Part shown: piece after piece, positions 1,810 through 16,220 of the stretch
How positions within the stretch are numbered: position 1 is the first letter of the stretch
Layout: each line of letters opens with the position of its first letter
Source of the DNA: Candidatus Brocadiaceae bacterium
Lineage (GTDB): Bacteria; Planctomycetota; Brocadiia; Brocadiales; Bathyanammoxibiaceae
NCBI GenBank assembly: GCA_030018855.1
Contig: JASEHG010000024.1
Coordinates: forward strand, 1-16,220
DNA: 16,220 bases
Direction of reading: 5' to 3'
Notes under the pieces: generated by a model
Told to the model about the DNA's origin: nothing
The model's input: only the letters and a program-made list of their open reading frames with translations
Databases searched by the model: none
Program-made: the position numbers and the translations under genes

Positions 1810-2070
1810 ATGCCGACGTATGAGTATAGGTGTGAAGGTTGCGGTCATGAATTTGAGCTCTTTGAATCCATTAATGCCGGCAAGGTGAAGACCTGCCCCT
1901 CTTGCGGGAATAAGGCCAAGAGGCGTATTGGGACGGGGTCAGCCGTAATCTTTAAGGGGAGTGGTTTTTATCAGACGGATTATCGCAGTAAGGACTACCA
2001 CGACAAGGCCAAGGCAGAAAAGGGTGGCGGGGCCGCCCCAGGCGAGGCGTCCAAGGGGGGGAAACAATAG
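1810..2070 (+). CDS. FmdB-family zinc-ribbon protein (putative regulatory protein)
   Basis: N-terminus MPTYEYRCEGCGHEFE...CPSCG is the characteristic FmdB/CxxC-x(n)-CxxC zinc ribbon. It has a Gly/Lys-rich tail and a strong GGAGG RBS. Confidence 0.85.
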   Translation: MPTYEYRCEGCGHEFELFESINAGKVKTCPSCGNKAKRRIGTGSAVIFKGSGFYQTDYRSKDYHDKAKAEKGGGAAPGEASKGGKQ

Positions 2071-2257: not shown

Positions 2258-2557
2258 GTGTATTTGGAGACACTGAGCACGGAAGAAGTAGAAAAGGATG
2301 TTACTGCCATAGTAGCAGAGGTGACCGAGCTAGATAGGGAGGAGATATGGCAGAAAAGGGAGGCCAACTTTTTCAAAGAACTGGAGATAGACTCCCTCCT
2401 GGCCCTGGAGATATTGGCCCTTATAGAAAAGAAGTTCAAGATTCAGATTCCTGAAGAGAAGCTGGTAGACATTACCTCTCTAACTGGCACCATCAATATG
2501 ACCAAAGCGGTCCTGTCTGAGAATGGAAGGCTCAAGGGAGAGCCTCAGAAGGCCTAG
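2258..2557 (+). CDS. Acyl carrier protein, dedicated and longer than canonical AcpP
   Basis: The phosphopantetheine-attachment motif EIDSLLALEI (DSL serine at about residue 46) sits in a small acidic helical protein. The tracked GTG at 2258 directly abuts the AAGGAGG SD (2251-2257). TTG at 2264, with 6-nt spacing, is the more plausible start. Confidence 0.85.
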   Translation: MYLETLSTEEVEKDVTAIVAEVTELDREEIWQKREANFFKELEIDSLLALEILALIEKKFKIQIPEEKLVDITSLTGTINMTKAVLSENGRLKGEPQKA

Positions 2558-2569
2558 GAAGGACCCTTT

Positions 2570-3019
2570 ATGGGTATCAGTTTTGAGGAGGTAAGGAGAC
2601 TAGTCCCTCAGAGGTATCCTTTTCTCTTCATAGACAAGGTGGTGGAGTTAGAGGAAGGTAAGAGGATCTTATGCCTAAAGAATGTCTCAGGAAATGAATC
2701 TTTTTTTGTAGGACATTTCCCAGAGTATGCCATAATGCCTGGGGTGCTGACCCTGGAAGCCCTGGCCCAAGCCTCCATAATCTTATTCAAAAAAAGCTTC
2801 CTTAAAGAAGAAACTTCCAATTCGGTATTCCTCCTGGCCTCTCTGAGGGCCAGTTTCGTAAAGCCTGTCTTCCCCGGAGACCAGTTACTCCTGGAAGTCA
2901 ACGTGGAAAAGGTGGTGTCCAAAGGGGCAATTGTGCAGGGTACGGCAAGGGTGGGGGAGGAGATAGTAGCCAAGGCCTCCTTGACCTTCGGTCTGGCTGA
3001 TAAGAGTTCTCTGGGTTAG
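2570..3019 (+). CDS. fabZ: 3-hydroxyacyl-ACP dehydratase FabZ
   Basis: Hallmark strings LVPQRYPFLFIDKV and GHFPEYAIMPGVLTLEALAQ, with the catalytic His and Glu present. Length is 149 aa. RBS AGGAAGGA is 7 nt upstream. Confidence 0.93.
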   Translation: MGISFEEVRRLVPQRYPFLFIDKVVELEEGKRILCLKNVSGNESFFVGHFPEYAIMPGVLTLEALAQASIILFKKSFLKEETSNSVFLLASLRASFVKPVFPGDQLLLEVNVEKVVSKGAIVQGTARVGEEIVAKASLTFGLADKSSLG

Positions 3020-3090
3020 ATTTGGAGATTTAGAGATTTGAGATTTAGGGATTTAAAATCTAAAAATCCAAAATCTCAAAATCTAAAATT
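3017..3090. repeat. Mirrored word array: about 5 x (R)GAGATTT followed by about 5 x AAAATCT(C), forming an imperfect hairpin
   Basis: The sequence reads TAGATTT GGAGATTT AGAGATTT GAGATTT AGGGATTT | AAAATCT AAAAATCC AAAATCTC AAAATCT AAAATT. The first TAG is the fabZ stop codon. The element ends 5 nt before the fabF ATG. Confidence 0.8.
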
Positions 3091-3095
3091 ATGAA

Positions 3096-4316
3096 ATGGA
3101 AAGGCGTGTAGTAGTCACTGGGCTGGGCGTAATTACCCCTATCGGTTCTGGCAAGGACAAGTTCTGGAAGGCCCTGCTGGAAGGGAAGTCAGGCGTAGGG
3201 GAGGTAACTTGCTTTGATACCTCAGGACACAAAGTCCATAGGGGTACGGAGGTAAGGGACTTTAATCCCAGGGACTACATTAAGAACGGGACCGTAGACC
3301 AGCTGGGTAAGGGGTCTCAGATGGCCATTGCGGCCACCAAGTTGGCCCTGATGGACGGGGGACTAGGGCTTGCGGAGGTTGACCCAACAAGGATTGGCGT
3401 ATCAGTAGGAACGACCGGGGGAGAGATACAGATACTGGAAAAGATAAACCTTATAAGATATGGGCAGGACGAAGACCATGTGGACATAGGCCTCTTTCTG
3501 AGGCATCCCTGCAACAATATCCCCTCCAACATTGCCAGAGAATTTGGCCTCAAGGGCCCCAACATTATTATTCCCACCGCCTGTGCAGCCGGCAATTACG
3601 CCATTGGTTACGCCTACGACCTTATAAAACTAGGGAGGGCTGATTATATGCTGGCAGGGGGGGCAGACCCCTTCTCCAAGGTGGCCTTTATTGGCTTTGG
3701 CCGCCTGGGGGCAGTGGCACCGGATATCTGTCAGCCCTTTGATAAAAACCGTAAAGGCATGCTTGTGGGAGAGGGGGCAGGCATACTATTACTGGAACCC
3801 CTGGATAATGCCCTGAAAAGGGGTGCCACTATCTATGCCGAGATTATCGGCTACGGCCTTAGTTGCGATGGGTATCACATCACTATCCCACACCCGGAAG
3901 GGGATGGGGTGGCCTCCTCACTGCGGAAGGCCCTGAAGAATGCCGACATAACCCCTGAGGACGTGCAGTATATAAATGCCCACGGGACCGGTACCGTTGC
4001 CAACGACAGGGCAGAAACTATCTCTATAAAGAAGGTCTTTGGGGACCATGCCAGGAAGTTACTGGTGAGTTCTATAAAGTCCATGATGGGTCACACCATG
4101 GGGGCGGCCAGCGCAATAGAGACGGTTACCTGTGCCCTGGTGGTAAAACATGACGTAGTCCCCCCCACTATCAATTATCAGACAAAGGACCCAGAATGTG
4201 ACCTGGATTATGTGCCTAACGTAAAAAGGGAACATCCCGTAAACATAGCCCTTAACACGGCCTATGCCTTTGGGGGTAACAACAGTTGTCTGGTTATAAA
4301 GAAGTTCTTGAATTAA
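3096..4316 (+). CDS. fabF: Beta-ketoacyl-ACP synthase II (FabF-type), catalytically complete
   Basis: N-terminus [15 protein letters not shown]. Active-site Cys is in [11 protein letters not shown], His in [10 protein letters not shown] and His in [21 protein letters not shown] and the C-terminal [11 protein letters not shown] are present. In-frame TAA at 3084-3086 fixes the start at 3096. No SD is visible upstream. Confidence 0.93.
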
Positions 4317-4362
4317 CCGCAACATGCAGCTCCTTTCCCTATATTTTTAGCCATACAGAGAA

Positions 4363-5589
4363 ATGCAGAAACGGGTCGTAGTAACAGGTATTGGGATTAT
4401 CAGCCCCATAGGCACCGGTAAGGAGGCCTTCTGGGGGAACCTGGCTGCGGGTGTCTCAGGGGTAAGGCCCGTTACCCTCTTTGACGTGAGTAGGTACACC
4501 AGCCGGGCGGCTGGAGAAATAACTGACTTCAGTCCCAAGACCTACCTTGGACAGAAAGGTATAAGGCATTTTGATAGGACAAGCCTACTCATAACTGCCA
4601 CCGCTGCTATGGCCCTGGAAGATGCCCGACTGGATAAGGTCTATGGGGAGGAAGATATAGGGATAGTGGTGGGGTCCACCTTTGGGAGCATTAACAGTAT
4701 ATCTACCTTTGACATGGACGCCCTCAGAGAGGGGCCCAATTACGTCAACCCAATGGATTTCCCCAATACCGTCCTTAATGCCCCCGCCAGCCGTGCCTCC
4801 ATTTTTTGCCAGGCTAAAGGGCTAAACTCTACCGTTTCCACAGGGGAGACCAGTGGGACGGACGCTATAATCTATGCCTCTGACTTTCTTAAGATGGAAA
4901 GGATAAAGGTGGTGCTAGCTGGGGGCGTTTATGGCCTTACGAGGGATATCTTCTGGGCGGCTTACAAGGCAGGGGTCCTCTCCGGCAGTAAAGACAGCCA
5001 ATCAGAAATATGCGCACCATTTGATAAGAGGCGGAACGGAATTGTACTGGGAGAAGGGGCCGCATTACTGGTCCTTGAGACCCTGGAAGATGCCCTGGCC
5101 CGTAAGGCCACCATATATGCAGAGGTCAAAGGTTATGGTACTGCCTTCAATCCCACGAGCCTGAGCCAGAGTGACCTCCAGGGTGGGGTAAGGGCAGTCT
5201 CCATGGCCCTCCAGGAGGCAGGCCTCGGCCCGCGGGATATATCCTATGTCTCGGCCAATGCCAACTCCAGCCCTAACGGCGACCGTATGGAGGCCACCGT
5301 TATAAAGGAATCCTTCAAGGAACGGGCAAAAAGCATCCCTGTTAGTGCCATAAAGTCCATGACCGGGGACTGCCTGGACGCCTCCGGAACCATGCAGTGT
5401 ATAGCCTGCGTCGGGGCAATCAATAACGGGATAATCCCCCCGACGATCAACTATCGGGAACCAGACCCATTATGTGACCTTGACGTAGTCCCTAACGTGA
5501 AGAGGGAAGCAGTGGTCAGACATGCCCTGGTACAGAGTTTTTCTTACACAGGCAACTGTTCTGCCATGGTACTGTCTAAATACTCCTGA
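4363..5589 (+). CDS. KS-like protein lacking the Cys-His-His triad (chain-length-factor-like partner of the preceding FabF)
   Basis: It has the same fold signature (KRVVVTGIGIISPIG, LAGG, PPTINY, DVVPN). By hand alignment anchored on LAGG, GYG and Y(I/V)xA, Cys is replaced by Glu (STGETSGTDAI), His1 by Ser (NPTSLSQ) and His2 by Asn (VSANANSS). The GH of IKSMxGH becomes GD. In-frame TAG at 4348-4350 fixes the start. Confidence 0.85.
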   Translation: MQKRVVVTGIGIISPIGTGKEAFWGNLAAGVSGVRPVTLFDVSRYTSRAAGEITDFSPKTYLGQKGIRHFDRTSLLITATAAMALEDARLDKVYGEEDIGIVVGSTFGSINSISTFDMDALREGPNYVNPMDFPNTVLNAPASRASIFCQAKGLNSTVSTGETSGTDAIIYASDFLKMERIKVVLAGGVYGLTRDIFWAAYKAGVLSGSKDSQSEICAPFDKRRNGIVLGEGAALLVLETLEDALARKATIYAEVKGYGTAFNPTSLSQSDLQGGVRAVSMALQEAGLGPRDISYVSANANSSPNGDRMEATVIKESFKERAKSIPVSAIKSMTGDCLDASGTMQCIACVGAINNGIIPPTINYREPDPLCDLDVVPNVKREAVVRHALVQSFSYTGNCSAMVLSKYS

Positions 5590-5595
5590 CAATGA

Positions 5596-7008
5596 ATGGG
5601 CAGACCCTCGGCAAAACGGTACGACGTAGTAGTCATTGGGGCGGGTATTGGGGGGCTGGTCTGTAGTGCCTTCCTGTCCAGGAAGGGGAAGAAGGTACTC
5701 CTGGTAGAACAGCATTCTCAGCCTGGGGGTTACTGCACTACGTTCAAGAGGAAAGGTTTCGTCTTTGATGCAGCCGTGCATCATATAGGAGGTTGCGGAC
5801 GCTACAGTATCGTGGGGAGGTGTCTGAAAGAGTTGGGTCTGGGAATGGAGTTCTTCAGGCTGGACCCTATGGACAGCCTCATCTTCCCCGATTTTTCTAT
5901 TGATATTCCAGCAGAAATAGAGGATTATATAACTCTGCTGGGCAAGAAATACCCATTAGAAAAGGGACACGTTGAGAAGTTCTTTAAGGATTTTGTAAAA
6001 CTCTACTGGGCCATAATCAACGAGGCCTCAGATAGCCCAACCTTGAATAACTACAAGAATACGACGTATAAAGAGATGCTGGATAGCTTTTTTGAGGACG
6101 AGGGGCTGAAGAGGACCCTGGCAGGTCAGTGGGGCTATCTTGGTACGCCCCCTGGAGAGGTATCCAGTATAGGGATGTGCCAGATGTTGATAAATTACCT
6201 GAGGGATGGGGCCTATTACCCCAAGGGTGGCACACAGAACTTTGCCAATGGCCTGGCTAAGAATTTTACCGAATCCGGAGGTGAGACCCTCCTATCCACT
6301 ATGGCAGAAGAGGTCCTCATGGACGGTAGGAAGGTAAGGGGCGTTAAGCTGGAAGGAGGATGTGAGGCCCTGGCAGACGTAGTGGTTTCTAACGTGGATG
6401 CCAGGCAGACCTTTTCACGCCTCGTTAAAGAAGAGTTTGACCATACGTATTCAGAGAGGCTAAGGGGCATGAAAGAAAGCCCCTCCTATTTCCTCCTATA
6501 TCTGGGGCTTGACCCGGAGATTGACCTGAAAGGGTTCAGGAGAGGCTTTTATCACGGTCCGGGTAACCAGTGGAAATACGTATCTGCCCCCACAAAGGTG
6601 GATAGCAGCCTGGCCCCTGGAGGGAGACAGATTCTTAACGTGGTAGCCACCGTAGAGGAAAGTTACGAAGAAGTGAGGGACTGGAAGGCCCTGAAGGACA
6701 GGCTCACCCAGGAGAACATAAATTATCTTGATAGGCTGATACCCGCTCCAGGTGGACTCAGAAAGCACATAGAAGTAGTGGAGGCCGCAACCCCCAGGAC
6801 CCTGGAGCGATACACCCTGAATTCCAGAGGGGCTGCCTACGGGTGGGCAGTTACCCCGGAGCAGACAGGTTCGGGAAGGCTGGACCATCGCACCCCACTA
6901 GATAATCTCTTTCTGGCAGGACACTGGACGAATCCAGGGCCAGGAGTCTGTGCGGTAGTATCTTCGGGCTGGAGGGTGGCAAATCTTATACTAGGGAGTA
7001 GGGGGTAG
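5596..7008 (+). CDS. FAD-dependent oxidoreductase of the phytoene desaturase (CrtI)/COG1233 family
   Basis: N-terminal dinucleotide fold YDVVVIGAGIGGLVCSAFLSRKGKKVLLVEQHSQPGGY. C-terminal family motif LFLAGHWTNPGPGVCAVVSSG. Length is 470 aa. The start is 6 nt after the KS-like stop. Confidence 0.85.
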   Translation: MGRPSAKRYDVVVIGAGIGGLVCSAFLSRKGKKVLLVEQHSQPGGYCTTFKRKGFVFDAAVHHIGGCGRYSIVGRCLKELGLGMEFFRLDPMDSLIFPDFSIDIPAEIEDYITLLGKKYPLEKGHVEKFFKDFVKLYWAIINEASDSPTLNNYKNTTYKEMLDSFFEDEGLKRTLAGQWGYLGTPPGEVSSIGMCQMLINYLRDGAYYPKGGTQNFANGLAKNFTESGGETLLSTMAEEVLMDGRKVRGVKLEGGCEALADVVVSNVDARQTFSRLVKEEFDHTYSERLRGMKESPSYFLLYLGLDPEIDLKGFRRGFYHGPGNQWKYVSAPTKVDSSLAPGGRQILNVVATVEESYEEVRDWKALKDRLTQENINYLDRLIPAPGGLRKHIEVVEAATPRTLERYTLNSRGAAYGWAVTPEQTGSGRLDHRTPLDNLFLAGHWTNPGPGVCAVVSSGWRVANLILGSRG

Positions 7009-7070
7009 GGGATAGGGAGTAGGGAAAAGAGAAAAGATTGCTACCCCCTACACCCTACCCCCTACACCCT
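6992..7070. repeat. TAGGG-word / CCCTA-word long imperfect hairpin, with G-quadruplex-capable arms
   Basis: Left arm TAGGGAGTAGGGGGTAGGGGATAGGGAGTAGGG (6992-7024), 16-nt A-rich loop, right arm CTACCCCCTACACCCTACCCCCTACACCCT (7041-7070). GGGGGTAGGG (7001-7010) is the exact complement of CCCTACCCCC (7053-7062). The left arm encodes the last codons and the TAG stop (7006-8) of the CrtI-like gene. Confidence 0.85.
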
Positions 7071-7092
7071 AATTAAAGAGGAGGTAAGTTAT

Positions 7093-8544
7093 ATGAAAAA
7101 GATGCTCCTGATTAACCCTCATCCGCCAGGACGCCACGGGGAGGAGAGTATCCATGTCATCGTCCAGATGCCCTTGAACCTGGCTTACATCGCCGCCCTC
7201 ACACCAGGGGATTGGGAGTTTGACGTCGTTGACGAGAACATAGAACTCGCCCTGGACGAAAAGGAACAGGAGATAACTTTTGAGCCTCCCGACCTGGTGG
7301 CCATCACGGCACTGACCTATCAGGCCCCAAGGGCCTACAGGATCGCCATGGCCTGCAGGAAGCGCGGCATACCTGTCATCATGGGTGGTATCCATGCCTC
7401 CGTCTGCTCTGAGGAGGCCGTCCAGTACGTGGACGCCGTTATAACAGGCGAGGCGGAGACCGTCTGGCCAGAGGTAATCAGGGACTTTGAGCAGGGACAG
7501 CTGAAAAAGATATACAACGGCGGCCTGCCCCCTCTTTCTACGTTGAAAAAAGTCTACCCCGACAGAGAACTCCTGAAGAAGAAGTACGGCTACAAGTTTT
7601 CCTCCATAATCACCACCAAGGGCTGTCCCAACCGGTGCGACTTCTGCAGTGTACCTACCTTCCAGGGGCAGAAATTCAGGGAAAGACCCTATGAGGACGT
7701 CCTGGACGAGATGGCCGCTACGGACTACAAAGGTCTGATGTTCGCCGAAGATAATTTCTACGGGCACAGCGTAAAGTCTGCTGAACGGGCCAAAAACCTC
7801 TTCAGGGGTATGATAGACAGGAACCTGGGCAAGAACTGGTTGGGCTTCACTGCCCTGAACATCGGCCTTGACCCTGAGGTCCTACAGCTTATGACTAAAT
7901 CGGGCTGTTTTGGATTCCTTGTGGGTATTGAGTCCACCAACGAGCAGGTCCTTCAGAAGATGAACAAGAAGGTCAACCTCAGGCTGGGGACTACGAGTTA
8001 CAAGGACTGCATAAAGAAGGTCCACGACGCAGGCCTGATTGTCTGGGGTTCGGTGGTATTCGGTGCTGACGGAGACGACAAGGACTCCTTTAAGAGGATG
8101 GTGGACTTTATCCTGGACTGCCAGGTAGATATCCTCACCTACGGCCTAGATTGCCCATTTCCCAAGACCCCGTTATTCTACAGGTTAGATGCCGAAAGGA
8201 GACTCTTCAGGAAGAATTTCCCCTGGGACTGGCAGTACTATGAGACCGCACACATAGTCCACCGCCTCGTGGATATGACACTGGATGATTTTGTTAACGG
8301 CATGCAGTACGTTTACGACCATCTCTATGCCGGAGACAATCTCAGGATGCGTTTCAAGAATTCCATTAAGGCCACAGGCAATCCCCGCAACTCCATGTTT
8401 GCCCTGAGGGTAAGCCAGGATTGGGACCGGGTCTTCAAACAGGTGCTGGAGAACCTCCACAAGCTACAGGAATCAGGGGATTATTATAAGGATTGTTATA
8501 AAGAGACCGGTAAGACTGCCGTCTCTCTTTCAGGCACTGCTTAG
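7093..8544 (+). CDS. B12-binding-domain radical SAM enzyme (class B rSAM)
   Basis: N-terminal cobalamin-binding-type Rossmann segment (LVAITALTYQAPRAYRIAMACRKRGIPVIMGGIHAS), followed by the radical SAM cluster motif GCPNRCDFCS (CxxxCxxC). Strong RBS AGAGGAGG 8 nt upstream. Confidence 0.9.
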   Translation: MKKMLLINPHPPGRHGEESIHVIVQMPLNLAYIAALTPGDWEFDVVDENIELALDEKEQEITFEPPDLVAITALTYQAPRAYRIAMACRKRGIPVIMGGIHASVCSEEAVQYVDAVITGEAETVWPEVIRDFEQGQLKKIYNGGLPPLSTLKKVYPDRELLKKKYGYKFSSIITTKGCPNRCDFCSVPTFQGQKFRERPYEDVLDEMAATDYKGLMFAEDNFYGHSVKSAERAKNLFRGMIDRNLGKNWLGFTALNIGLDPEVLQLMTKSGCFGFLVGIESTNEQVLQKMNKKVNLRLGTTSYKDCIKKVHDAGLIVWGSVVFGADGDDKDSFKRMVDFILDCQVDILTYGLDCPFPKTPLFYRLDAERRLFRKNFPWDWQYYETAHIVHRLVDMTLDDFVNGMQYVYDHLYAGDNLRMRFKNSIKATGNPRNSMFALRVSQDWDRVFKQVLENLHKLQESGDYYKDCYKETGKTAVSLSGTA

Positions 8545-8549
8545 AAGTT

Positions 8550-8609
8550 GTAGGGGCGTATTGTTCGCTATTATGCGAATCTGCCTAAGGCATGGCAATA
8601 CGCCCCTAC
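8550..8609. repeat. GTAGGGGC-family element folding as a three-way junction
   Basis: Perfect 14-bp outer stem GTAGGGGCGTATTG (8550-8563) / CAATACGCCCCTAC (8596-8609). It encloses two mini-hairpins, TTCGC-TATTAT-GCGAA (8564-8579) and TGCC-TAA-GGCA (8582-8592). It starts 6 nt after the rSAM stop and has no U-tract. Confidence 0.8.
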
Positions 8610-8684
8610 CGCGGCCCCTCTAATAACCACTCTTAAAGGAGCTTACGTCTGGTGCAAATCTTTGCATGAGGCCCGATTTTGCTA

Positions 8685-8712
8685 TTGACTTTTGGTTTTT
8701 ATTCGCTAAACT
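8685..8712 (+). promoter_or_regulatory. Candidate distal promoter for the Rieske/cyt b operon
   Basis: TTGACT (8685-8690), 16-nt spacer, TAAACT (8707-8712). Palindrome TGCAAA-TC-TTTGCA (8653-8666) lies just upstream. Motif match only. Confidence 0.3.
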
Positions 8713-8837
8713 ATCCGTGCTTCTCAGTGAGGAGGGAGGCCAATAGCCATCTACCTAAAAGGCAGGAGGTTCAGTATCACAGGGGCCGCGCCTACGGTAC
8801 TTGTGATTCGGTGGAGTTGTCTGTACGAAATGCGGGC

Positions 8838-8865
8838 TTGAAATTTCCATTTAGAATGCTATAAA
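8838..8865 (+). promoter_or_regulatory. Candidate proximal promoter for the Rieske/cyt b operon
   Basis: TTGAAA (8838-8843), 16-nt spacer, TATAAA (8860-8865). It would give a leader of about 100 nt containing the 8891-8939 hairpins. GGAGG RBS at 8961-8965. Confidence 0.4.
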
Positions 8866-8890
8866 ATACAACATCCTTCTCCTAATAGAC

Positions 8891-8939
8891 GTAGGGCACG
8901 GTTTTAACCCTGCCCAATATGGACAGACCTTTAGGTCTG
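8891..8939. repeat. Leader hairpins of the GTAGGG / CTGCCCA word family
   Basis: GTAGGGCACGG-TTTTAA-CCCTGCCC (8891-8915) is a stem with one mismatch. It is followed by CAGACCT-TT-AGGTCTG (8924-8939). The word CTGCCCA(A)TA occurs at 8911, 8936 and 11472. Confidence 0.5.
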
Positions 8940-8971
8940 CCCATACTACGTACACCTCTTGGAGGTAGGCG

Positions 8972-10873
8972 ATGGCTCACGAGGATAGGTTTACCATAGA
9001 TTTAGGACAGCCTGAACTCAATATAAACATCCTGCCACGTCTTGCTATCCGCTATAAAGGTTCCTTCCAAAAGCTCCTCTCAGAAAGAAAATACAAAGCA
9101 GACGTTGCCAATGACCTACAATGGTTCCACAAAAACGTACCCTGCCGTGAGGCCTGTCCTGTAGGGACTAATGCCAGGGCCTATGTCACGGCCATTGCTA
9201 AGGGGGATTACCAGGAGGCCTACCTTGTAGCTCGTGAAAACAACCCCTTTGTATCTGTCTGCGGTAAGATTTGTAATGCCCCCTGTGAACCTGTCTGCAC
9301 CAGGAGTAAGCTGGACGAACCGGTGTCCATTAGGGCCCTGAAAGGGTTTGCGGTAGAAAAAAACCGTCTGGGCACCAGAGAGGTCTACCAGTGGCTCAAT
9401 AAAAAGAAGGGGAAGGTGTCGCTTGCTGGAAAGGCAGAAGTTCCTAATATAGCAATAGTTGGAGCAGGGCCTGCGGGCCTGTCTGCCGCACACGACCTCG
9501 CTCTTATGGGTTACAAGGTGAAACTACTGGAGGCCTCCAGCCAGCCTGGTGGTATGTTGAACAACGCCATCCCCGCCTTCAGGCTAGACAGAGAGGCAGT
9601 AAAAAGAGACATAGAAGGCATCCTCTCGCTGGGTATGGAATTAGAGATTAACACCAGGTGTGGAGAGGACTTCGGTATAGATGAGCTCAGGCAGAAGTAC
9701 GATGCCGTACTCTTAGCCGCCGGCTTACAGAAGGGTAGGTCCCTGGACGTGCCTGGCATGGAACTAGCAGGGGTATCTCAGGGGCTGGATTTCCTCAAAG
9801 AAGTGGCCTCCAGGGGGAGGGCCTCATTGGGGACGAAGGTTGTGGTAGTGGGCGGGGGTAGTATGGCTGTAGAGGTGGCCCGTACTGCACGGCGATTAGG
9901 GGTATGGAATACAAAGGTAACTGTGGTCTCTTACGAGGCATCCAGGGGTACGAAGCCCGGAAAGCCGGGGCAAGAGATGACAGCAGAGGATACGGAGATT
10001 GCTGAGGCCCTACAAGAAGGGGTGGTATTCTATCCAGGGCTTGGTCCTAGACGCATATTGGGAGAAGGCGGCAGGGTAACGGGTCTGGAACTGGTCCCGG
10101 TTGTGGCACTAGACCGTGACGGGGGAGGGCGATATAAACCTGTCTTTGGGCAAAACGGTTCCAGCGTTATAGAGGCAGACACGGTACTCCTGGCGATTGG
10201 CCAGGAGCCTGATACTGCCCTTCTCCAGAATACGAATTGTGGGGTGCGGATTGCGGAATCCCGCATCCTGCATTCCGAATTCCGCATTCCTGGGGCGGAT
10301 GGGGTCTTTGTCTGTGGTGACCTGGCTGGTGCTGGGCATGTAGTGGAGGCGGTTGCCTCCGGGCAGAAGGCCGCCCTTGCCATCCATAATTACCTGGAAG
10401 GCAAGGGTTCTCTTGGACTAGGCGAACTGCGCCCTGTAGTACCCGTCCACCACCACGAGAAATCGGACACCTTTACCAAACGGCTTACGATAGGTCGGAT
10501 TCTGCCTCCAATAGCACCCACAGATGCCAGGCTCAGGGGTATGGACCCCGTGGAAGGGAGTTATTCTGAGAAGGTTGCCAGGAGGCAGGCGGAGAGGTGC
10601 CTGGACTGTACGGTAAGCCCAATGATAGGGCCCTACCATCCTTGCACCGCCTGTGGCGACTGTCTGGACGTCTGCCCTACAGAGTGTCTTTCTTTAAGGT
10701 TCATGAATAATAAAGACCTCAGTTTTGGTGACAGTTGCATAGAGGAGGCTGAGGGAGAAGGCCCCTGGGTGGGGTTAATTATAAATGAAGAGGAGTGTGT
10801 CCACTGCGGGGCCTGCGCCGAGGCCTGCTGGTCGGATGCCATATACATGGTAAAGTTCAAAGAGATGGAATAG
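8972..10873 (+). CDS. GltD-like FAD/NAD(P)H-dependent iron-sulfur oxidoreductase with a C-terminal 2x[4Fe-4S] ferredoxin domain (NAD(P)-linked subunit of the Rieske/cyt b complex)
   Basis: N-terminal GltD-type Cys clusters (CREACPVGTNARAYV; VCGKICNAPCEPVCTR). Two dinucleotide folds (IAIVGAGPAGLSAA; VVVVGGGSMAVEVA). GVFVCGD motif. C-terminal CTACGDCLDVCP and CVHCGACAEAC. Confidence 0.88.
   Translation: MAHEDRFTIDLGQPELNINILPRLAIRYKGSFQKLLSERKYKADVANDLQWFHKNVPCREACPVGTNARAYVTAIAKGDYQEAYLVARENNPFVSVCGKICNAPCEPVCTRSKLDEPVSIRALKGFAVEKNRLGTREVYQWLNKKKGKVSLAGKAEVPNIAIVGAGPAGLSAAHDLALMGYKVKLLEASSQPGGMLNNAIPAFRLDREAVKRDIEGILSLGMELEINTRCGEDFGIDELRQKYDAVLLAAGLQKGRSLDVPGMELAGVSQGLDFLKEVASRGRASLGTKVVVVGGGSMAVEVARTARRLGVWNTKVTVVSYEASRGTKPGKPGQEMTAEDTEIAEALQEGVVFYPGLGPRRILGEGGRVTGLELVPVVALDRDGGGRYKPVFGQNGSSVIEADTVLLAIGQEPDTALLQNTNCGVRIAESRILHSEFRIPGADGVFVCGDLAGAGHVVEAVASGQKAALAIHNYLEGKGSLGLGELRPVVPVHHHEKSDTFTKRLTIGRILPPIAPTDARLRGMDPVEGSYSEKVARRQAERCLDCTVSPMIGPYHPCTACGDCLDVCPTECLSLRFMNNKDLSFGDSCIEEAEGEGPWVGLIINEEECVHCGACAEACWSDAIYMVKFKEME
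10244..10286. repeat. In-frame copy of a 43-nt GCGGAAT/ATTCCGC word element inside the GltD-like CDS
   Basis: GTGCGGATTGCGGAATCCCGCATCCTGCATTCCGAATTCCGCA matches the intergenic 11405-11447 at 33 of 43 positions (hand count). The first 7 and last 13 nt are identical, over the same overall length. It encodes VRIAESRILHSEFRI. Confidence 0.45.
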
Positions 10874-10888
10874 GGAGAAAAATGTTTT

Positions 10889-11392
10889 ATGTTTAAACCA
10901 GTGGCGAAGGCTGAGGCTATAGACCCGAAGAAGATTGCCCGTAGGGAGGCTATCCGAAAGGGCCTCTTCTGGGCCTGTTGGGGGGTCTTCATTGGGTTTG
11001 CCGGGATATTAGGGGCAAGCATAGTGAGGTTTGCGTATCCCAGGATAGTCTTTGAGCCCTCCAGTATATTTAAAGCCGGTAAACCGGACGACTACAAGGT
11101 AGGTTCGGTTGCGCTTATCCATGGTAGAGGGGTCTTTGTGATAAGGACGGAAAAGGGATTCTATGCCCTATCAGCCAAGTGTACCCATTTGGGATGCCAG
11201 CCCATCTGGTATGAGGACCAGCAGGTCTTCAAGTGTCCGTGTCATGGCGCCCGTTTTGATAAGGAAGGTATTAACTTTGCCGGTCCAGCCCCCCTGCCAT
11301 TGCCCAGGTTCCACCTGAGCCTCTCCCCGGATGGCCGTTTACTGGTAGATAAGTCAACAAACGTGGGTATGGACTTCTTCCTGGAGGCATGA
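10889..11392 (+). CDS. Rieske [2Fe-2S] protein
   Basis: CTHLGC...CPCHGARFD cluster-binding boxes. N-terminal Arg-rich segment (IARREAIRKGLF) followed by a TM helix, as in Tat-dependent Rieske anchors. The upstream ATG at 10882 hits a TAA after 4 codons. Confidence 0.92.
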   Translation: MFKPVAKAEAIDPKKIARREAIRKGLFWACWGVFIGFAGILGASIVRFAYPRIVFEPSSIFKAGKPDDYKVGSVALIHGRGVFVIRTEKGFYALSAKCTHLGCQPIWYEDQQVFKCPCHGARFDKEGINFAGPAPLPLPRFHLSLSPDGRLLVDKSTNVGMDFFLEA

Positions 11393-11404
11393 AAAGGGCG
11401 TGGA

Positions 11405-11447
11405 GTGCGGAGTACGGGATTCTGGACTCCGCCTTCCGAATTCCGCA
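11405..11447. repeat. Intergenic 43-nt GCGGA/TCCGC word element
   Basis: Contains the hairpin GCGGAGT-N12-ACTCCGC and the 3' string TTCCGAATTCCGCA. It is paralogous to 10244-10286. Confidence 0.55.
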
Positions 11448-11452
11448 CAGTT

Positions 11453-11477
11453 GTAGGGGCAGGGCTTGCCCCTGCCC
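11453..11477. repeat. GTAGGGGC-family hairpin
   Basis: GTAG-GGGCAGGG-CTTGC-CCCTGCCC (8-bp stem, 5-nt loop). It is preceded by GTT as in the 8547 copy and followed by ATA. Confidence 0.7.
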
Positions 11478-11502
11478 ATAAGAAAGGCGAGGTAAGATTG
11501 GA

Positions 11503-12123
11503 ATGAAGTGGGTACCGTTAGGCCTTGTGAGATATACCGTCTGTCTGGGCGGGCTCAGTGTGTTCTTCTTCCTGTTATGCATCCTCACCGGGCCATTCCT
11601 GATGCTTTATTATGTGCCTGACGTGAACCGTGCCCATGCCGACGTGATGGATATTATGCAGGTAGTGCCCTTTGGGGCCTTTGTCAGGAACGTCCACCGC
11701 TGGTCGGCCTGTCTTATGATTGTCTGCGTACCCGCACACATGACCAGGGTATTCCTTCAGGCCGCATATAAGCCCCCGCGCCAGCTCAACTGGCTGGTAG
11801 GGATTACGCTGCTAATCCTTACCTATCTCATGTGTTTCACGGGCTACATGCTCCCCTGGGACCAGGAGGCCTACTGGGGCGCCACCATCGGGGCCACCAT
11901 GGCGGAGAACTCCCCTTTCCTTGGGGCAAAAGGACCCTTTAGCGTACTTCCGCCAGATAAGGACATACATTACATAATGCTGGGTGGTACCGTGTTAGAC
12001 CAACCGACGCTCAGCCGTTTCTTTTTCGCGCACTGTATCGCTATCCCAGGTGCCCTCGCAGGGTTAATGGGATTCCACTTTTTCAATATCCACAGGGCCG
12101 GTGGTATGTCGGGCCCATTATAA
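11503..12123 (+). CDS. Cytochrome b, N-terminal (b6-like) subunit
   Basis: Helix B heme ligands HRWSACLMIVCVPAH (H-x13-H) and helix D HCIAIPGALAGLMGFH (H-x14-H). N-terminal VCLGG matches the YCLGG heme-ci cysteine context of b6. In-frame TAA at 11479-81 fixes the start. Confidence 0.92.
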   Translation: MKWVPLGLVRYTVCLGGLSVFFFLLCILTGPFLMLYYVPDVNRAHADVMDIMQVVPFGAFVRNVHRWSACLMIVCVPAHMTRVFLQAAYKPPRQLNWLVGITLLILTYLMCFTGYMLPWDQEAYWGATIGATMAENSPFLGAKGPFSVLPPDKDIHYIMLGGTVLDQPTLSRFFFAHCIAIPGALAGLMGFHFFNIHRAGGMSGPL

Positions 12124-12137
12124 CCAGGGAACAACCT

Positions 12138-12938
12138 ATGGCAGAAAAGATCGTTGAAGAAGGACCAGTAACCGCAGAGGGCAAAGAAAAGCTGAGACTC
12201 CTCACAGTGGTGAGGGGTGAGACCCTGCGGAATAGGGACATCTACGAGAGACCTCCCAAGTACGAACTCTTCTTCCCCAATTTCGTGATGAAGGAGTTGT
12301 GCGTGGGATTGGCCTTCCTAATAATTATCTTTATGTGGGCCTACTTTAAGGATTCGCCCCTTTACGAGTTGTCTGACCCCGCTGAGACACCTTCACACAT
12401 AAAGGCCGCATGGTACTTTGTGGGATTACAGGAGATGCTGGCCTATTTTGACCCCTATCTGGCAGGGGTGATTATCCCCTCCATGATACTGGCCGGGCTT
12501 TATCTGATACCCTTTATTGACCCAGACCCGGTGAAGGGGATAGGCCGTTTTGCCTTCAAGGAGAGGAAGTTCGCCATCGGCTGTTTCCTGGGGGGGGTTG
12601 CCATGTGGTATGGCCTCCTCCTGGTGGGCTGGTTCTTCAGGGGACCTTACTGGAGCTTCTACTGGCCGTGGGAGGACCACTCGGTAGTGAAGGCCACGGA
12701 AGTAGCCCTCTGGAGCTTCCCCCTCCCAGCAGGGATAGCCTTCCTCGTGTGTTATGGGATGTTGGTGCTTATCCTCCCCGCCGTTATCTTCCAGAACTTC
12801 TTCTTCCGGCTGGGGTTGATAAGATACCTTATCACGTTTAACCTCTTTGCGGTCATGTGTTTCGTACCCATCAAGATACTTCTGAGAAGCGCATTTAGTG
12901 TGAAATATATACTTGTAACACCATGGTTCAACATTTAA
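12138..12938 (+). CDS. Cytochrome b C-terminal subunit (subunit IV-like, extended with extra TM helices)
   Basis: AAWYFVGLQEMLAYF aligns with the PEWYF(Y/L)P Qo-site segment of subunit IV / cyt b C-terminal domains. Multiple hydrophobic helices. It starts 14 nt after the cyt b stop. Confidence 0.85.
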   Translation: MAEKIVEEGPVTAEGKEKLRLLTVVRGETLRNRDIYERPPKYELFFPNFVMKELCVGLAFLIIIFMWAYFKDSPLYELSDPAETPSHIKAAWYFVGLQEMLAYFDPYLAGVIIPSMILAGLYLIPFIDPDPVKGIGRFAFKERKFAIGCFLGGVAMWYGLLLVGWFFRGPYWSFYWPWEDHSVVKATEVALWSFPLPAGIAFLVCYGMLVLILPAVIFQNFFFRLGLIRYLITFNLFAVMCFVPIKILLRSAFSVKYILVTPWFNI

Positions 12939-12966
12939 GAGGAGACCGCTGAAAAACATGCGCAGT

Positions 12967-13039
12967 GTCATTCTGAGGGAGCGAAGCGACCGAAGAATCT
13001 CAGTTGAAACGGGAGATTCTTCGCTTCGCTCAGAATGAC
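12967..13039. repeat. Long three-segment hairpin (CATTCTGAG...CTCAGAATG type)
   Basis: Left arm GTCATTCTGAG-ggag-CGAAGCGA-ccga-AGAATCTC, loop AGTTGAAACGG, right arm GAGATTCT-TCGCTTCG-CTCAGAATGAC. That is 27 bp in three helices with two 4-nt bulges and no U-tract. Confidence 0.85.
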
Positions 13040-13084
13040 AGGACGTATCATTGAGACTTTTGCAGAGGTCTCAAGAGACTAAAA

Positions 13085-14338
13085 ATGTTTCCTATTAACC
13101 TTTCTATAAAGTGGCTGATACCTTTTCTGATATTCTCCTGCGGCCTGGTGGCCGTAAGTCTGCTATGGGTCTTCAGAGAGACCTGGAGGGTGGAGTGGAA
13201 GATGTACCAGAAGCAAGAGTACGCCCAGATGAAGACAGACATGGAGGCCAAGCTAAAGGTACTGGAAGACCCCCAGTGGGGTGACCCCAAAAAGGCCGCC
13301 CTGGCCAGGAACAGCCTGGAGTACCTCAAAAAACCCAGATATCAGGTCAAACAGATAATCCTTAAGGGGGAGGGAAGCTGGAAAAAAGGGACAAGTGGCG
13401 TAAGGGTAGACAGGTGCATGACCTGCCACATAAACGAGGATAAACTCATTAAACAGCACCCCTACACGGCAGAGATATTCGCCTTTGACATTTATGGATG
13501 TACGGTTTGCCATGAGGGTAATGGGCGTGCCATCAAGAAGGCCTCAGCCCATGAGCATATGCTAGAGAAGAAGGCGGACATGTATAACAGGCTTGTCCAT
13601 CCAGAGGACGCCATTAAGTTCTGGAAGACCCTGGCCGGATTGGATATTCGGGACGGATTAGATGCCAGCGACTTCAGGTATTACAACGTCACAGGAGAAC
13701 CCCAGGTTTACGTGGGGAGCACTACCTGCATTAAGTGCCACAAGAAACTCACTGCCTATCACGTAGATTTCTGGGCAGGGAGCAAGTTCAAGACGTTTGA
13801 GAAGGTAAAAAATGCAAAGGATTTTATAGAAGGGGACGATAACTACCGCAAACAGTGTTATAAGTGTCATACCACAGGGTATAACGAGAAGACCGGAGAA
13901 TACAACGAAGAGAACGTAACTTGTGAGGCCTGCCATGGGCCAGGCGAGGTATACTCACAGTTTATGAGTACTGGAAAACTGGCGGAGGCGGCTACCCTAA
14001 CCAGGGACACCTTCAGCTTCAAGGTCTGTGGTAACTGCCACATCCCCAGGAATCATGAGATGCGGTTGCCCAGGCTCCTGGCTACGGAGAAAATAGAACT
14101 ATCCAGCTCATTACGAGAAGATGTAGGGGCGACCCGGCGGGTCGCCCCAGAGGAAGGGGAATTAAATCTAGCAGAAGAAGCGTCTGTCCCGGACATATTT
14201 ACTCTAATTAGTTTCTCCCACGAAGAAAAAGGGGCCCCGAAGGCCACCGGAGAGGGGCTTAGACCCCAGGAGGTGGAGAAAGGGACCCCTATTCCTGAAG
14301 TACATAGGACTCAAGCAGAGATAGGCACTAAAGGTTAG
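13085..14338 (+). CDS. Membrane-anchored hexaheme cytochrome c
   Basis: N-terminal TM helix (WLIPFLIFSCGLVAVSLLWVF). Six CxxCH motifs: CMTCH, CTVCH, CIKCH, CYKCH, CEACH, CGNCH. The last 98 aa are low-complexity and Glu-rich, and the true C-terminus is uncertain. Confidence 0.85.
   Translation: MFPINLSIKWLIPFLIFSCGLVAVSLLWVFRETWRVEWKMYQKQEYAQMKTDMEAKLKVLEDPQWGDPKKAALARNSLEYLKKPRYQVKQIILKGEGSWKKGTSGVRVDRCMTCHINEDKLIKQHPYTAEIFAFDIYGCTVCHEGNGRAIKKASAHEHMLEKKADMYNRLVHPEDAIKFWKTLAGLDIRDGLDASDFRYYNVTGEPQVYVGSTTCIKCHKKLTAYHVDFWAGSKFKTFEKVKNAKDFIEGDDNYRKQCYKCHTTGYNEKTGEYNEENVTCEACHGPGEVYSQFMSTGKLAEAATLTRDTFSFKVCGNCHIPRNHEMRLPRLLATEKIELSSSLREDVGATRRVAPEEGELNLAEEASVPDIFTLISFSHEEKGAPKATGEGLRPQEVEKGTPIPEVHRTQAEIGTKG
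14123..14148. repeat. GTAGGGGC-family perfect hairpin embedded in the hexaheme CDS tail
   Basis: GTA-GGGGCGACCC-GGC-GGGTCGCCCC, a 10-bp perfect GC-rich stem, preceded by GAT. It is read in frame as VGATRRVAP. Confidence 0.75.
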
Positions 14339-14404
14339 AGGGTAATTAGAGGAGGGGAGGTGATAAGACAAAACGTGTTATGTGTGCCCGCCGAACTACG
14401 CCGA

Positions 14405-14473
14405 AGGCAAATTTGCCTGAGGCACGAGCGGATTCTAGTCACCGGTAAGAAATTTCTAGACAGATAACTCTAG
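14405..14473 (+). promoter_or_regulatory. Palindrome plus three TCTAG words upstream of the HAO-like gene (possible operator/internal regulatory region)
   Basis: Perfect 14-nt palindrome AGGCAAATTTGCCT (14405-14418). TCTAG occurs at 14434, 14455 and 14469 (21-nt and 14-nt spacing). The RBS-like AAGGGG is 7 nt before the ATG at 14487. Confidence 0.3.
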
Positions 14474-14486
14474 AAAGGGGAAAAAT

Positions 14487-16220
14487 ATGAGACAATGGAG
14501 TTTACCGGTAGTATTAATCGTGGGAGTAATGATGTTGGGGGTTGCGCCCTGTCTGGCCCAGGCGCCAGCAGCCCCGGTGCCAGTAGCGGCAGCGGTTGCC
14601 GCTGACTTGCCACCGCTTAACGTCATGTGGCCCAGCGAGAAGGAGCAGAAGGCCTGGAGGGAATTTGTGGGTCTGGAGAAGGGTGATGGTCCCTATCGTG
14701 ACCTTTATAAACCCATCCCCATGCACATGTACATAGCCCCCACCAGGCACTACATCAGGCCCGACATGTCTGGCTTCGCCGACCTGATGAAAAAGTTCAA
14801 GCCAGACCAGTGCGAGGAGTGCCACCTGGAGGTGACCCCAGGCTGGACGCACCAGTGGGAGGATTCCGTTCATGCCAATCCCAGGAAGACCCCCTATACT
14901 GCCCAGAAGACGGCAGAGATAGAGAAGGTCCTGGGAAGGTCCATCACCAAGGTAGGCTGTGCAGAGTGCCACGGTTCAAGCCATGACAAGTTGCAGATGC
15001 CACATGTGGAGCAGTCCTGTGGCCACTGCCACAAACAGCAGATGGACGAGTTCGTCACAGAGAAGAAGGACGGCAGGCCAAGCCACTTTGCATCCTGGCA
15101 GTCCGAGGTAGTGCCCCCCTGGTATATTGAGGCCTACAGGAGGGGAGATGGCGTATCCATGGTTGGTTGCGACATCTGCCACCCAGAGATGGAGAGGTGC
15201 GACGGCTGTCACATGAGACACCTCTTTGACGCCAAAGAGGCCAGGCAACCAGAGACCTGTGGAAAGTGCCACATGGGCTATGACCACCCGGACTACGAGA
15301 GCTTTACGGAGTCCGCCATGGGTGTAACCTACCATGCCACTAGTCATGAGTGGAATATGAACATACCCATGGAGCAGGTGAAACCCGGTAAGGATTGGAG
15401 GGGTCCAACCTGTGCCTACTGCCATATGTATCAGGGTGGTGGGAAGTTTGGCCATAACGTCACCAACAAGGGCATCTGGCGTATGGGCGTCTACAAGCCC
15501 AAGCAGAGGAACTACGAGTACAAGTCCAGTCTGAAGGACGCCCCGTACGGGATAAACGTCCCGCCTCTGAACAAGGTGATAGACCTTGATTCTCCAGATA
15601 ACAAGGGCAAGAGGCAGAAGTGGATAGAGCTCTGCTCCAAGTGCCATAGCCCAAGGTTTGCAACGATTTACCTCAACCAGACCCTGGATGAGTACATGCT
15701 CCTGGGCTGGCAGAAGACCGATGCAACTATGGCTGTGGTAGACGGTCTTTTCAAGGATAACTGCATAGTCCCAGGCCCAGATAACCGTGACCCATTCTGG
15801 ATTGGTGACAAGATAGCGGGCATACTTGGTCCAGAGGCATTAGGACCTGTTCTGTATCCCTTATTCAATGAGAAGAAGGGCTACTTCCCGCTGTATGGTC
15901 CCATTATGGGGACAGGACATCATTACGTTACAGGTCCTGGCAGGCCCAACAATGTTGAATTACTGCTAGAAGAGCAGTGGTTCGGGGCCTTCCTGAGGGG
16001 TTACAAGGGTACGGCCCATGCCCAGCAGGATTACTCCTGGTGGTATGGTTGGGCGCCTATGATTCAGAACCAGGCCAAGGTTCAGGACTGGGCCGTTCAG
16101 TTGAGGAGGATAAAGGCCCTAGAGGACAAAGCTGGGATAAAGGCAGACGGAACACTGCCCAGCGACAAGATAATCTACGGCAATACTTCTCTTTACACAG
16201 ACGGTCTGCATAGGAAGTAG
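14487..16220 (+). CDS. hao: Octaheme hydroxylamine-oxidoreductase-like (HAO-family) cytochrome c, secreted
   Basis: Signal peptide MRQWSLPVVLIVGVMMLGVAPCLAQA. Eight CxxCH motifs: CEECH, CAECH, CGHCH, CDICH, CDGCH, CGKCH, CAYCH, CSKCH. The long C-terminal helical region is typical of HAO. The TAG stop is at 16218-16220, the window edge. Confidence 0.92.
   Translation: MRQWSLPVVLIVGVMMLGVAPCLAQAPAAPVPVAAAVAADLPPLNVMWPSEKEQKAWREFVGLEKGDGPYRDLYKPIPMHMYIAPTRHYIRPDMSGFADLMKKFKPDQCEECHLEVTPGWTHQWEDSVHANPRKTPYTAQKTAEIEKVLGRSITKVGCAECHGSSHDKLQMPHVEQSCGHCHKQQMDEFVTEKKDGRPSHFASWQSEVVPPWYIEAYRRGDGVSMVGCDICHPEMERCDGCHMRHLFDAKEARQPETCGKCHMGYDHPDYESFTESAMGVTYHATSHEWNMNIPMEQVKPGKDWRGPTCAYCHMYQGGGKFGHNVTNKGIWRMGVYKPKQRNYEYKSSLKDAPYGINVPPLNKVIDLDSPDNKGKRQKWIELCSKCHSPRFATIYLNQTLDEYMLLGWQKTDATMAVVDGLFKDNCIVPGPDNRDPFWIGDKIAGILGPEALGPVLYPLFNEKKGYFPLYGPIMGTGHHYVTGPGRPNNVELLLEEQWFGAFLRGYKGTAHAQQDYSWWYGWAPMIQNQAKVQDWAVQLRRIKALEDKAGIKADGTLPSDKIIYGNTSLYTDGLHRK

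Follow-up and report, generated by a model that had tools for sequence, protein, structure and literature searches.

The stretch of DNA considered here, 16,220 nucleotides of contig JASEHG010000024.1 from a Candidatus (Ca.) Brocadiaceae bacterium and in the following called the window, ends with six co-directional genes, A to F. On balance, these genes probably make up a whole operon that encodes a membrane-bound complex of the Rieske/cytochrome b6 type and of the R/b-3 kind, the complex that is encoded by kuste4569-4574 in Kuenenia, and they would represent a divergent copy of it, termed T1, that works along the lines published for R/b-3. The most likely function is that of a quinol-oxidising complex that reduces nitrite or another nitrogen oxide and has an NAD(H)-linked branch, with altered energetics. 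Direct observations are presented first, namely which subunits are encoded, which cofactor motifs they carry, the paralogy to a second operon type (T2) and the substitutions that are specific to T1, and the function is weighed on this basis.

All six open reading frames lie on the plus strand between 8972 and 16220 (Table 1), as a first-pass annotation of this DNA had already described. The gene types named there, which are a GltD-like FAD/Fe-S protein with a ferredoxin tail, a Rieske protein, a cytochrome b that is split into two genes, a protein with six CxxCH motifs and an HAO-family protein with eight, agree with the Pfam and NCBIfam matches and with the CxxCH counts. The genes are separated by gaps of 15, 110, 14, 146 and 148 nucleotides, and the stop codon of F is the final codon of the window. 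A candidate promoter is found inside the 427-nucleotide gap between a radical SAM gene and gene A, and no convincing terminator was found on the plus strand within the six-gene cluster. The same six-gene arrangement is seen again in at least ten independent metagenome-assembled contigs and is therefore not due to chance. The 110 nucleotides that separate the Rieske gene from the cytochrome b gene (11393-11502) can form a pair of G+C-rich hairpins (-44.6 kcal/mol, z = -1.9; of 200 shuffled sequences, 8 fold as well), which are possibly a processing or attenuation element, or nothing; in T1b loci, a sub-branch of T1, this gap has a length of only 14-20 nucleotides.

The loci related to the window represent two types of six-gene operon, T1 and T2, that are carried by a Hypogeohydataceae-like lineage and by Ca. 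Bathyanammoxibius. T1 comprises the window and the loci L003, L009 and L014, with the sub-branch T1b made up of L005, L006, L008 and the first cluster of L013, and T2 comprises L010, L011, L012 and the second cluster of L013 (14064-20960). Both types can occur in the same genome: in L013, which belongs to the Brocadiales metagenome-assembled genome (MAG) K_2_bin.28, a T1b operon (4461-11728) and a T2 operon (13914-20963) are arranged head to tail about 2.2 kb apart, and the MAG nzgw511 has T1 and T2 on separate contigs. For all six subunits, the closest relative of T1 is T2 (43-64% identity), and T2 is consistently nearer to the canonical R/b-3 proteins than is T1 (54% vs 46% for the HAO-like protein, 60% vs 55% for cytochrome b). 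In neighbour-joining trees, which were calculated with Kimura-type distances and 200 bootstraps and rooted on R/b-2, another Rieske/cytochrome b complex of Kuenenia, T1 and T2 each form one group with bootstrap values of 94-100. Together they form a clade with values of 98-100 for cytochrome b plus subunit IV, for the Rieske protein and for the GltD-like protein, and this clade includes the cluster of locus L025 in the two trees that sample it. In each of the subunit trees, the branches of T1 are longer than those of T2. Judged by these trees, the operon of the window is T1, the more derived of two in-paralogues, and not a one-to-one orthologue of kuste4569-4574.

T2 has in common with T1 the order with the GltD gene first, the N-terminal extension of the GltD-like protein and the NAD-type motif of that protein, but it differs by a serine in box II of the Rieske protein (GSRF), by a long N-terminus of cytochrome b with the sequence HLHP, and by the motif APWY. 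The changes in the Rieske box II, in the cytochrome b N-terminus and in the Qo motif are restricted to T1: the motif table shows them for each of the eight T1 loci that were compared, and for none of the other groups. As to further arrangements in this relationship, locus L007 (Planctomycetes bacterium RIFCSPLOWO2_12_FULL_50_35) contains two tandem T1b-type HAO-like genes (1036-2850 and 4268-6085), each about 66% identical to F. The cytochrome b/subunit IV cluster of L025 (307-5805) groups weakly with T1 (bootstrap 59), and a gene of the alginate-export porin family follows both this cluster and the orphan HAO gene P0020 (L109, 42-3819). P0020 and L025 may hint at a third related lineage or arrangement.

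All six reading frames are intact in at least eight T1 genomes from two families, with identities of 66-84% among the HAO-like proteins, and every haem, Fe-S and flavin motif is retained across T1, which argues that T1 is functional. In principle, T1 could be a decaying duplicate of T2 that has no function of its own, and the longer branches together with the loss of the N-terminal segment of cytochrome b would agree with such a decay. But besides the intact frames and motifs, the short start of cytochrome b is itself conserved, and some related contigs were recovered with T1 only, and we therefore regard a decay of T1 as extremely improbable.

For a comparison with R/b-3, canonical loci were found by way of two HAO homologues, one in a Kuenenia sp. 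MAG and one in Brocadiaceae bacterium B188 (L021 and L024). Their gene order is Rieske protein (172 amino acids), GltD-like protein (581), cytochrome b (256), subunit IV-like protein (240), hexahaem cytochrome (363) and HAO-like protein (581-584). These are the same six protein types as in the window, in both cases in an anammox lineage and with conservation of the cysteine for haem c(i) and of the ligands of the b haems, and to our knowledge this combination occurs, among described systems, only in the anammox R/b-3 complex. The order of the first two genes is different, however, as it is Rieske-GltD in R/b-3 and GltD-Rieske in the window and in all T1 and T2 loci, and identities between the window and R/b-3 amount to 33% for the GltD-like protein, about 40% for the Rieske protein, 53-55% for cytochrome b, 45% for subunit IV, 46% for the hexahaem cytochrome and 44-48% for the HAO-like protein.

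The first-pass annotation had simply equated the operon with kuste4569-4574. The gene content, the anammox relatives and the closer similarity of cytochrome b and subunit IV to R/b-3 bear this out in part, but the equation does not hold in view of the gene order, the paralogy, the GltD and HAO trees and the altered key sites. The nearest relatives are MAGs of anammox lineages, but the GltD-like protein is nearer to a non-anammox protein (42%) than to the kuste4570 type (33%). In the neighbour-joining trees, an orthology of every subunit with the kuste45xx proteins is not recovered, and the result for GltD is the firm one: T1 and T2 group with the non-anammox clusters L027 and L073a to the exclusion of the kuste4570 type with a bootstrap value of 100. 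In the tree of cytochrome b plus subunit IV, the canonical complex is excluded from a clade to which non-anammox clusters belong as well, with a support of only 58%. It is nevertheless conceivable that T1 is a plain orthologue of kuste4569-4574 with the same job, and that neutral drift in a deep-branching lineage accounts for the differences. The six protein types shared with L021 and L024, the retained cofactor motifs, and an HAO-like protein that lacks the cross-link tyrosine just as the kuste4574 type are in line with this explanation, which we still consider unlikely, as T2 keeps the canonical Ser, HxHP and APWY in the same genomes and is nearer to the canonical proteins, as the T1 changes are fixed across two families and not scattered, and as the GltD-like protein and the gene order deviate.

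R/b-2 (kustd1480-1485; L029) resembles the window in that it has a Rieske protein and a GltD-like subunit and that its cytochrome b is split, but the order in R/b-2 is Rieske, cytochrome b, GltD-like and subunit IV, and it has an octahaem cytochrome c and no pair of hexahaem and HAO-like genes. R/b-2 loci were recovered by a metagenome scan with a Kustd1480 fragment from a PDB alignment, to which L029 is 100% identical; a word-indexed protein search with cytochrome b had given 20 hits and no R/b-2 sequences. The identity of the window to R/b-2 is 45% for cytochrome b and 40% for subunit IV, and a membership of the window in R/b-2 was ruled out by gene order, content and identity. Because of the gene content and the identities of cytochrome b and subunit IV, the complex of the window is classified here, from its sequences, as the same kind as R/b-3, the products of which have been reported to co-migrate in the Kuenenia study. 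In the four metagenome contigs L073, L074, L076 and L077 (about 2289-6682 and 9842-17753; two of them titled or labelled marine), two different Rieske/cytochrome b clusters lie side by side, one of them with the GltD gene first, the other one with a Rieske protein that is Kustd1480-like (72% identity) and, some 4 kb downstream, a gene of the GltD-like type.

As to the organism, Planctomycetes bacterium RIFCSPHIGHO2_12_FULL_52_36 has the closest contigs, with amino-acid identities of 92-99%, and the groundwater MAGs nzgw511 and Brocadiia JP1 come next. The best protein matches carry the label Ca. Hypogeohydataceae or, where the identity is lower, Ca. Bathyanammoxibius. JP1 is assigned to Ca. 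Hypogeohydataceae in a preprint, according to which HZS, HDH and HOX are encoded in those MAGs. The window has a G+C content of about 52% and no hydrazine-synthase (hzs) gene among its genes. The operon probably belongs to a groundwater anammox bacterium that is Ca. Hypogeohydataceae-like, and the anammox assignment holds because the nearest relatives are MAGs of anammox lineages for which HZS, HDH and HOX have been reported. The absence of T1 from Brocadiaceae and Scalinduaceae has to be seen in the light of searches that were biased toward close relatives.

By their sequences, the T1 proteins are altered in three features that the Kuenenia work has tied to a model of NAD(P)H generation, namely the Ser/Tyr pair in the Rieske protein, the cytochrome b residue His43, and the YRR motif for NADPH in the GltD-like protein. 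In the Rieske protein B, box I is CTHLGC at residue 98 and box II is CPCHGARF at residue 116. The residues that follow CPCHG are A-R-F in T1 and G-R/K-F in T1b, as compared to S-K-Y in Kuste4569, S-G-F in Kustd1480 and S-R-F in T2, and non-anammox relatives keep the Ser as well. T1 Rieske proteins thus are without both hydrogen-bond donors, which are Ser127 and Tyr129 in Kuste4569. The matches of B in the PDB are nearly equal for 9rk4 (98 bits, inferred to be Kuste4569) and 9rk3 (91 bits, inferred to be Kustd1480). The Kuenenia study determined Rieske potentials of +303 mV for Kuste4569, which has Ser and Tyr, and of +335 mV for Kustd1480, and it cites yeast mutants in which the loss of Ser costs about 130 mV and the loss of Tyr about 65 mV. 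According to the same paper, menaquinol oxidisers normally have Rieske potentials below 200 mV, and the bifurcation scheme needs more than 300 mV. From box II, a lowered potential is predicted for the T1 Rieske protein.

In the cytochrome b subunit C, the haem ligands are His65/His79 and His177/His192, and Cys14 is at the position for haem c(i/N), all in conserved columns. A split cytochrome b with four His ligands and the haem c(i/N) cysteine is characteristic for the b6f/b6c type, the Qo motif of which, PEWY or PDWY, is not present in D; the motif is AAWY at residue 90 in T1, and APWY in T2, R/b-3, R/b-2 and the non-anammox relatives. C begins with MKWVPLGL just before helix A, a start that is the same in all eight T1 orthologues compared. 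Cytochrome b has a length of 206 amino acids in T1, 244 in T2 and 256 in R/b-3, so that C is about 50 residues shorter than the R/b-3 protein, and the N-terminal segment with an HxHP motif that is found in T2, R/b-3 and R/b-2 is absent from T1 together with its motif. By counting in the Kuenenia sp. sequence, His43 falls into this motif (HLHP), and in the Kuenenia study His43 is the ligand, modelled with AlphaFold3, of an additional b haem between the monomers that bridges to the flavoprotein. The gene for C cannot be extended, as there is an in-frame stop 8 codons upstream of the ATG, and a longer cytochrome b reading frame or a remnant of HLHP was sought in 11393-11502 and is not there in any frame. 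The short N-terminus is unusual, as a search of 1.84 billion representative proteins shows: in almost all of the 150 best matches, at least 30 residues precede the aligned start, although this search cannot separate proteins that are really short from genes truncated at the end of a contig. For haem c(N), the Kuenenia paper also discusses a glutamate ligand, for which it gives no residue number. A remodelled exit at the negative side, without the extra b haem proposed for Kuenenia, is predicted for T1 from these alignments.

The flavoprotein A consists of an N-terminal Cys-rich Fer4_20 domain, an FAD fold (GAGPAG at 164), an NAD fold (GGGSMA at 294) and a C-terminal ferredoxin tail for two [4Fe-4S] clusters; its cysteine columns are conserved in the alignment, and its best solved relatives are of the NfnB/GltD type (E 1e-70 to 1e-45). 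No hydrophobic or transmembrane segment was found in its hydropathy profile, and A probably is located on the cytoplasmic side. An N-terminal extension of about 45 amino acids is common only to T1 and T2. The motif of the nucleotide fold is VVSYEAS at 318, that is Y-E-A, where all five aligned solved relatives, R/b-3 and R/b-2 have Y-R-R. The arginines of Y-R-R, which follow strand beta-2, contact the 2'-phosphate of NADPH. T1, T2 and non-anammox relatives have a Glu after this strand, and the anammox copies T1 and T2 add an insert of 10 residues. As the Glu replaces a Y-R-R arginine, general knowledge of Rossmann folds leads to the prediction that A uses NAD(H) rather than NADP(H). Apart from T1 and T2, there are hundreds of non-anammox proteins (34-42% identity, E 1e-107 to 1e-116) to which A is closer than it is to the kuste4570 type.

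The hexahaem cytochrome E has domains of the cytochrome c554/c3/MtrC-like kind and a transmembrane segment at residues 11-29, and six CxxCH motifs are present in all its complete homologues of T1, T2 and the canonical type. Its length varies among T1 and T2 from 390 to 462 amino acids, and about 90 residues at the C-terminus (residues 330-417, approximately) form an acidic, proline-rich low-complexity tail that is absent from the canonical protein of 363 amino acids.

The HAO-like protein F has its best solved match in Kustc0458 (PDB 6H5L; E 3e-139, and 43% identity by BLASTP), and the distal pair Asp266/His267 is invariant. A profile of 37 sequences aligned over the full length to HAO of N. 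europaea (E 1e-147) places the cross-linking Tyr467 on Trp518 of F. A replacement of this Tyr by Trp has been described at the same site in another reductive anammox HAO, the cross-link tyrosine has been reported to be lacking in kuste4574-type proteins, and the cross-link-free Kustc0458/Kustc0457 (HAOr) converts nitrite to NO, whereas neither hydroxylamine nor hydrazine is oxidised by it. Because Trp518 replaces the cross-link tyrosine, F is assigned, by alignment, to the reductive, cross-link-free HAO type. A different candidate for the P460 cross-link residue, Tyr520, came from a single-sequence phmmer alignment to the Kuenenia HOX and would have made F and kuste4574 oxidative, but it was overruled by the profile alignment. 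An oxidative HAO-like subunit that converts hydroxylamine or hydrazine and delivers the electrons to the quinone pool or to NAD+ could have been supported by that alignment, and also by a weak NCBIfam match to hydrazine dehydrogenase (142 bits vs a cut-off of 900). With the Trp at the cross-link position, as in the other reductive HAO, and with a reductive, cross-link-free enzyme as the closest solved structure, such an oxidative role is very unlikely.

In the HAO tree, HAOr, the kuste4574 type, T1, T2 and fusions of HAO with a multicopper oxidase are each recovered with 100%, and the deep nodes are weak: T1 joins the orphan HAO P0020 with 82%, T2 joins the fusion clade with 75%, and T1, T2 and kuste4574 form one group in 0%. 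T1 is the reductive HAO clade most distant from Kustc0458 (40-44% identity). According to an earlier paper, Bathyanammoxibiaceae have one to three variants of "HAO7" with an identity of 47-53% to Kustc0458, and by identity this range fits T2, whereas T1 is at 40-44%; no paper was found in the literature that links Bathyanammoxibiaceae HAO variants to two distinct Rieske/cytochrome b operons.

In which direction electrons flow, what the substrate is and what the substitutions bring about is inferred, and the scheme that we favour for T1 is the published R/b-3 scheme. The topology in it is taken from the hydropathy profiles and the signal-like N-terminus of F. Menaquinol would be oxidised at a Qo site to which cytochrome b, subunit IV and the Rieske protein all contribute. 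The first electron would go from the Rieske cluster via the anchored hexahaem cytochrome to the HAO-like subunit and from there to nitrite, with nitrite to NO as the most likely reaction, and the second electron would cross the membrane via both b haems and the haem of the c(i) type to be passed through the Fe-S chain to the FAD of A and finally to the pyridine nucleotide. A coupling of quinol oxidation to the reduction of both NAD(P)+ and nitrite, which the first-pass annotation had given as an unproven proposal for Kuenenia, is indeed what has been published.

Several points weigh against this scheme for T1. The canonical R/b-3 complex itself is only a proposal as to its reaction, and the scheme is strained for T1 because the Rieske potential is predicted to be lower and the modelled bridging haem is without its ligand. 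If the Rieske potential is lowered by as much as the yeast mutants indicate and the bifurcation is symmetric around menaquinone, the low-potential branch would arrive at about -250 mV, which is too weak for NAD+ (-320 mV). Then there are points that affect the deviations themselves: the Ser/Tyr rule is imperfect, as Kustd1480 is without the Tyr and yet has +335 mV; the extra b haem is only a model and HxHP occurs also in L026, a cluster without an adjacent GltD gene, and thus the loss of HLHP may be silent with respect to the NAD branch; the choice of NADH over NADPH depends on one sequence motif; and the trees are simple-distance neighbour-joining trees, with deep nodes as weak as 45-62%.

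An ordinary low-potential complex of the menaquinol:cytochrome c type could also feed the HAO-like reductase, and the flavoprotein would then be an input for NADH, the electrons of which would pass along the Fe-S chain to the haems or the quinone site of the negative side. This would make the whole complex an NADH-assisted reductase of nitrite (or of NO or hydroxylamine) and not a generator of NAD(P)H. The T1 Rieske box II without its hydrogen-bond donors resembles the low-potential Rieske proteins of menaquinol oxidisers, and the Glu-type NAD motif is common to non-anammox clusters, one of which is located beside NosZ/NosD and thus in a purely reductive context. The Kuenenia authors argue, however, that refilling of the quinol pool from NAD(P)H via such a complex wastes much energy, the sequence rule for the Rieske potential has its known exception, and the sequence is silent on the electron direction, so that an NADH input is not what we expect, and we hold it to be rather improbable. 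A related and tentative idea is that T1 is a re-wired sister of R/b-3, with a low-potential Rieske protein, no extra b haem and an NADH-type flavoprotein, which serves as Q-cycle feeder of the HAO-like reductase or as NADH-assisted reductase, and that T2 keeps the bifurcating role in NAD(P)H generation. If this were true, the pair of T1 and T2 would be a natural control for the debated quinol bifurcation to NAD(P)+ in anammox. The support for R/b-3 in this respect comes from high Rieske potentials, the modelled extra b haem and the NAD(P) oxidoreductase subunit; T2 has these features, and T1 alters all three. As a deep-branching lineage keeps both versions side by side, the contrast between T1 and T2 makes the disputed bifurcation mechanism directly testable.

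Directly upstream of the operon there is a cluster of genes of the fatty-acid type (2258-8544; Table 1), the last three or four of which adjoin the T1 operon also in L003, L009 and L014. In its gene types we take this cluster to resemble the candidate ladderane-lipid genes kuste3603-3608 (Rattray et al. 2009).

Table 1. Features of the window and their positions.
Feature	Position	Strand	Remarks
ORF of 150 amino acids, N-terminal hydrophobic segment	1256-1708		no Pfam match
Zinc-ribbon protein	1810-2070		upstream region
Acyl carrier protein	2258-2557	+	fatty-acid-type cluster directly upstream of the operon
FabA/FabZ-like dehydratase	2570-3019	+	fatty-acid-type cluster
Two beta-ketoacyl synthases	3096-4316, 4363-5589	+	fatty-acid-type cluster
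Phytoene-desaturase-like flavoprotein	5596-7008	+	fatty-acid-type cluster
B12-binding radical SAM enzyme	7093-8544	+	fatty-acid-type cluster
Promoter candidate, sigma-70-like	8838-8867	+	TTGAAA, 18-nucleotide spacer, TAAAAT; 10/12 matches; consensus match only
A: GltD/NfnB-like flavo-iron-sulfur subunit, 633 amino acids	8972-10873	+	Pfam Fer4_20, Pyr_redox_2 and C-terminal Fer4_7; NCBIfam NAD(P)-binding/GltD-like
B: Rieske [2Fe-2S] subunit, 167 amino acids	10889-11392	+	Pfam/NCBIfam; one N-terminal transmembrane helix
C: cytochrome b6-like subunit, 206 amino acids	11503-12123	+	Cytochrome_B N-terminal half
D: subunit-IV-like cytochrome b C-terminal subunit, 266 amino acids	12138-12938	+	Cytochrom_B_C; about 5 hydrophobic helices
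E: hexahaem c-type cytochrome, 417 amino acids	13085-14338	+	exactly 6 CxxCH; one N-terminal hydrophobic helix
F: secreted octahaem HAO-like protein, 577 amino acids	14487-16220	+	exactly 8 CxxCH; Pfam Multi-haem_cyto 1.6e-44; signal-like N-terminus

Apart from Kuenenia's Rieske/cytochrome b complexes, the subunits of the window resemble several known systems. A shares with proteins of the NfnB, GltD and dihydropyrimidine-dehydrogenase type the Fer4_20 double-cluster domain and the FAD and NAD(P) folds, but differs from them by the additional C-terminal 2x[4Fe-4S] ferredoxin domain, the N-terminal extension, and Y-E-A in place of Y-R-R. F has the eight haem motifs, the distal Asp-His pair and the Trp in place of the cross-linking Tyr in common with HAOr, which is, however, soluble and has a dihaem partner, whereas F is encoded together with a Rieske/cytochrome b complex. 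The cytochrome b of the window matches the ExtP model of the Geobacter Ext cluster at 216 bits, and as the scores for ExtP and ExtQ are below the NCBIfam cut-offs of 290 and 150, a membership is not claimed. A likeness to the first part of the operon is found in non-anammox GltD-Rieske-cytochrome b clusters (L027, L108), which have the same first-gene order, proteins up to 42% identical to A and the same Glu-type NAD motif, but no HAO-like gene, other multihaem subunits and Rieske proteins that keep the Ser. The non-anammox GltD-like gene P0095 is followed by genes for a Rieske protein, cytochrome b, subunit IV and multihaem proteins, and P0129 (L108, 7001-15932; named as Chloracidobacterium sp. 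by one source) is the GltD-like gene of a cluster with a Rieske protein, a fused cytochrome b and a multihaem cytochrome c, directly followed by NosZ (nos_propeller and cupredoxin) and NosD. The GltD-Rieske-cytochrome b module is thus not special to anammox bacteria, and its position beside NosZ in a contig of the Acidobacteriota type suggests that the NAD-linked branch is a wider feature of Rieske/cytochrome b complexes that reduce nitrogen oxides.

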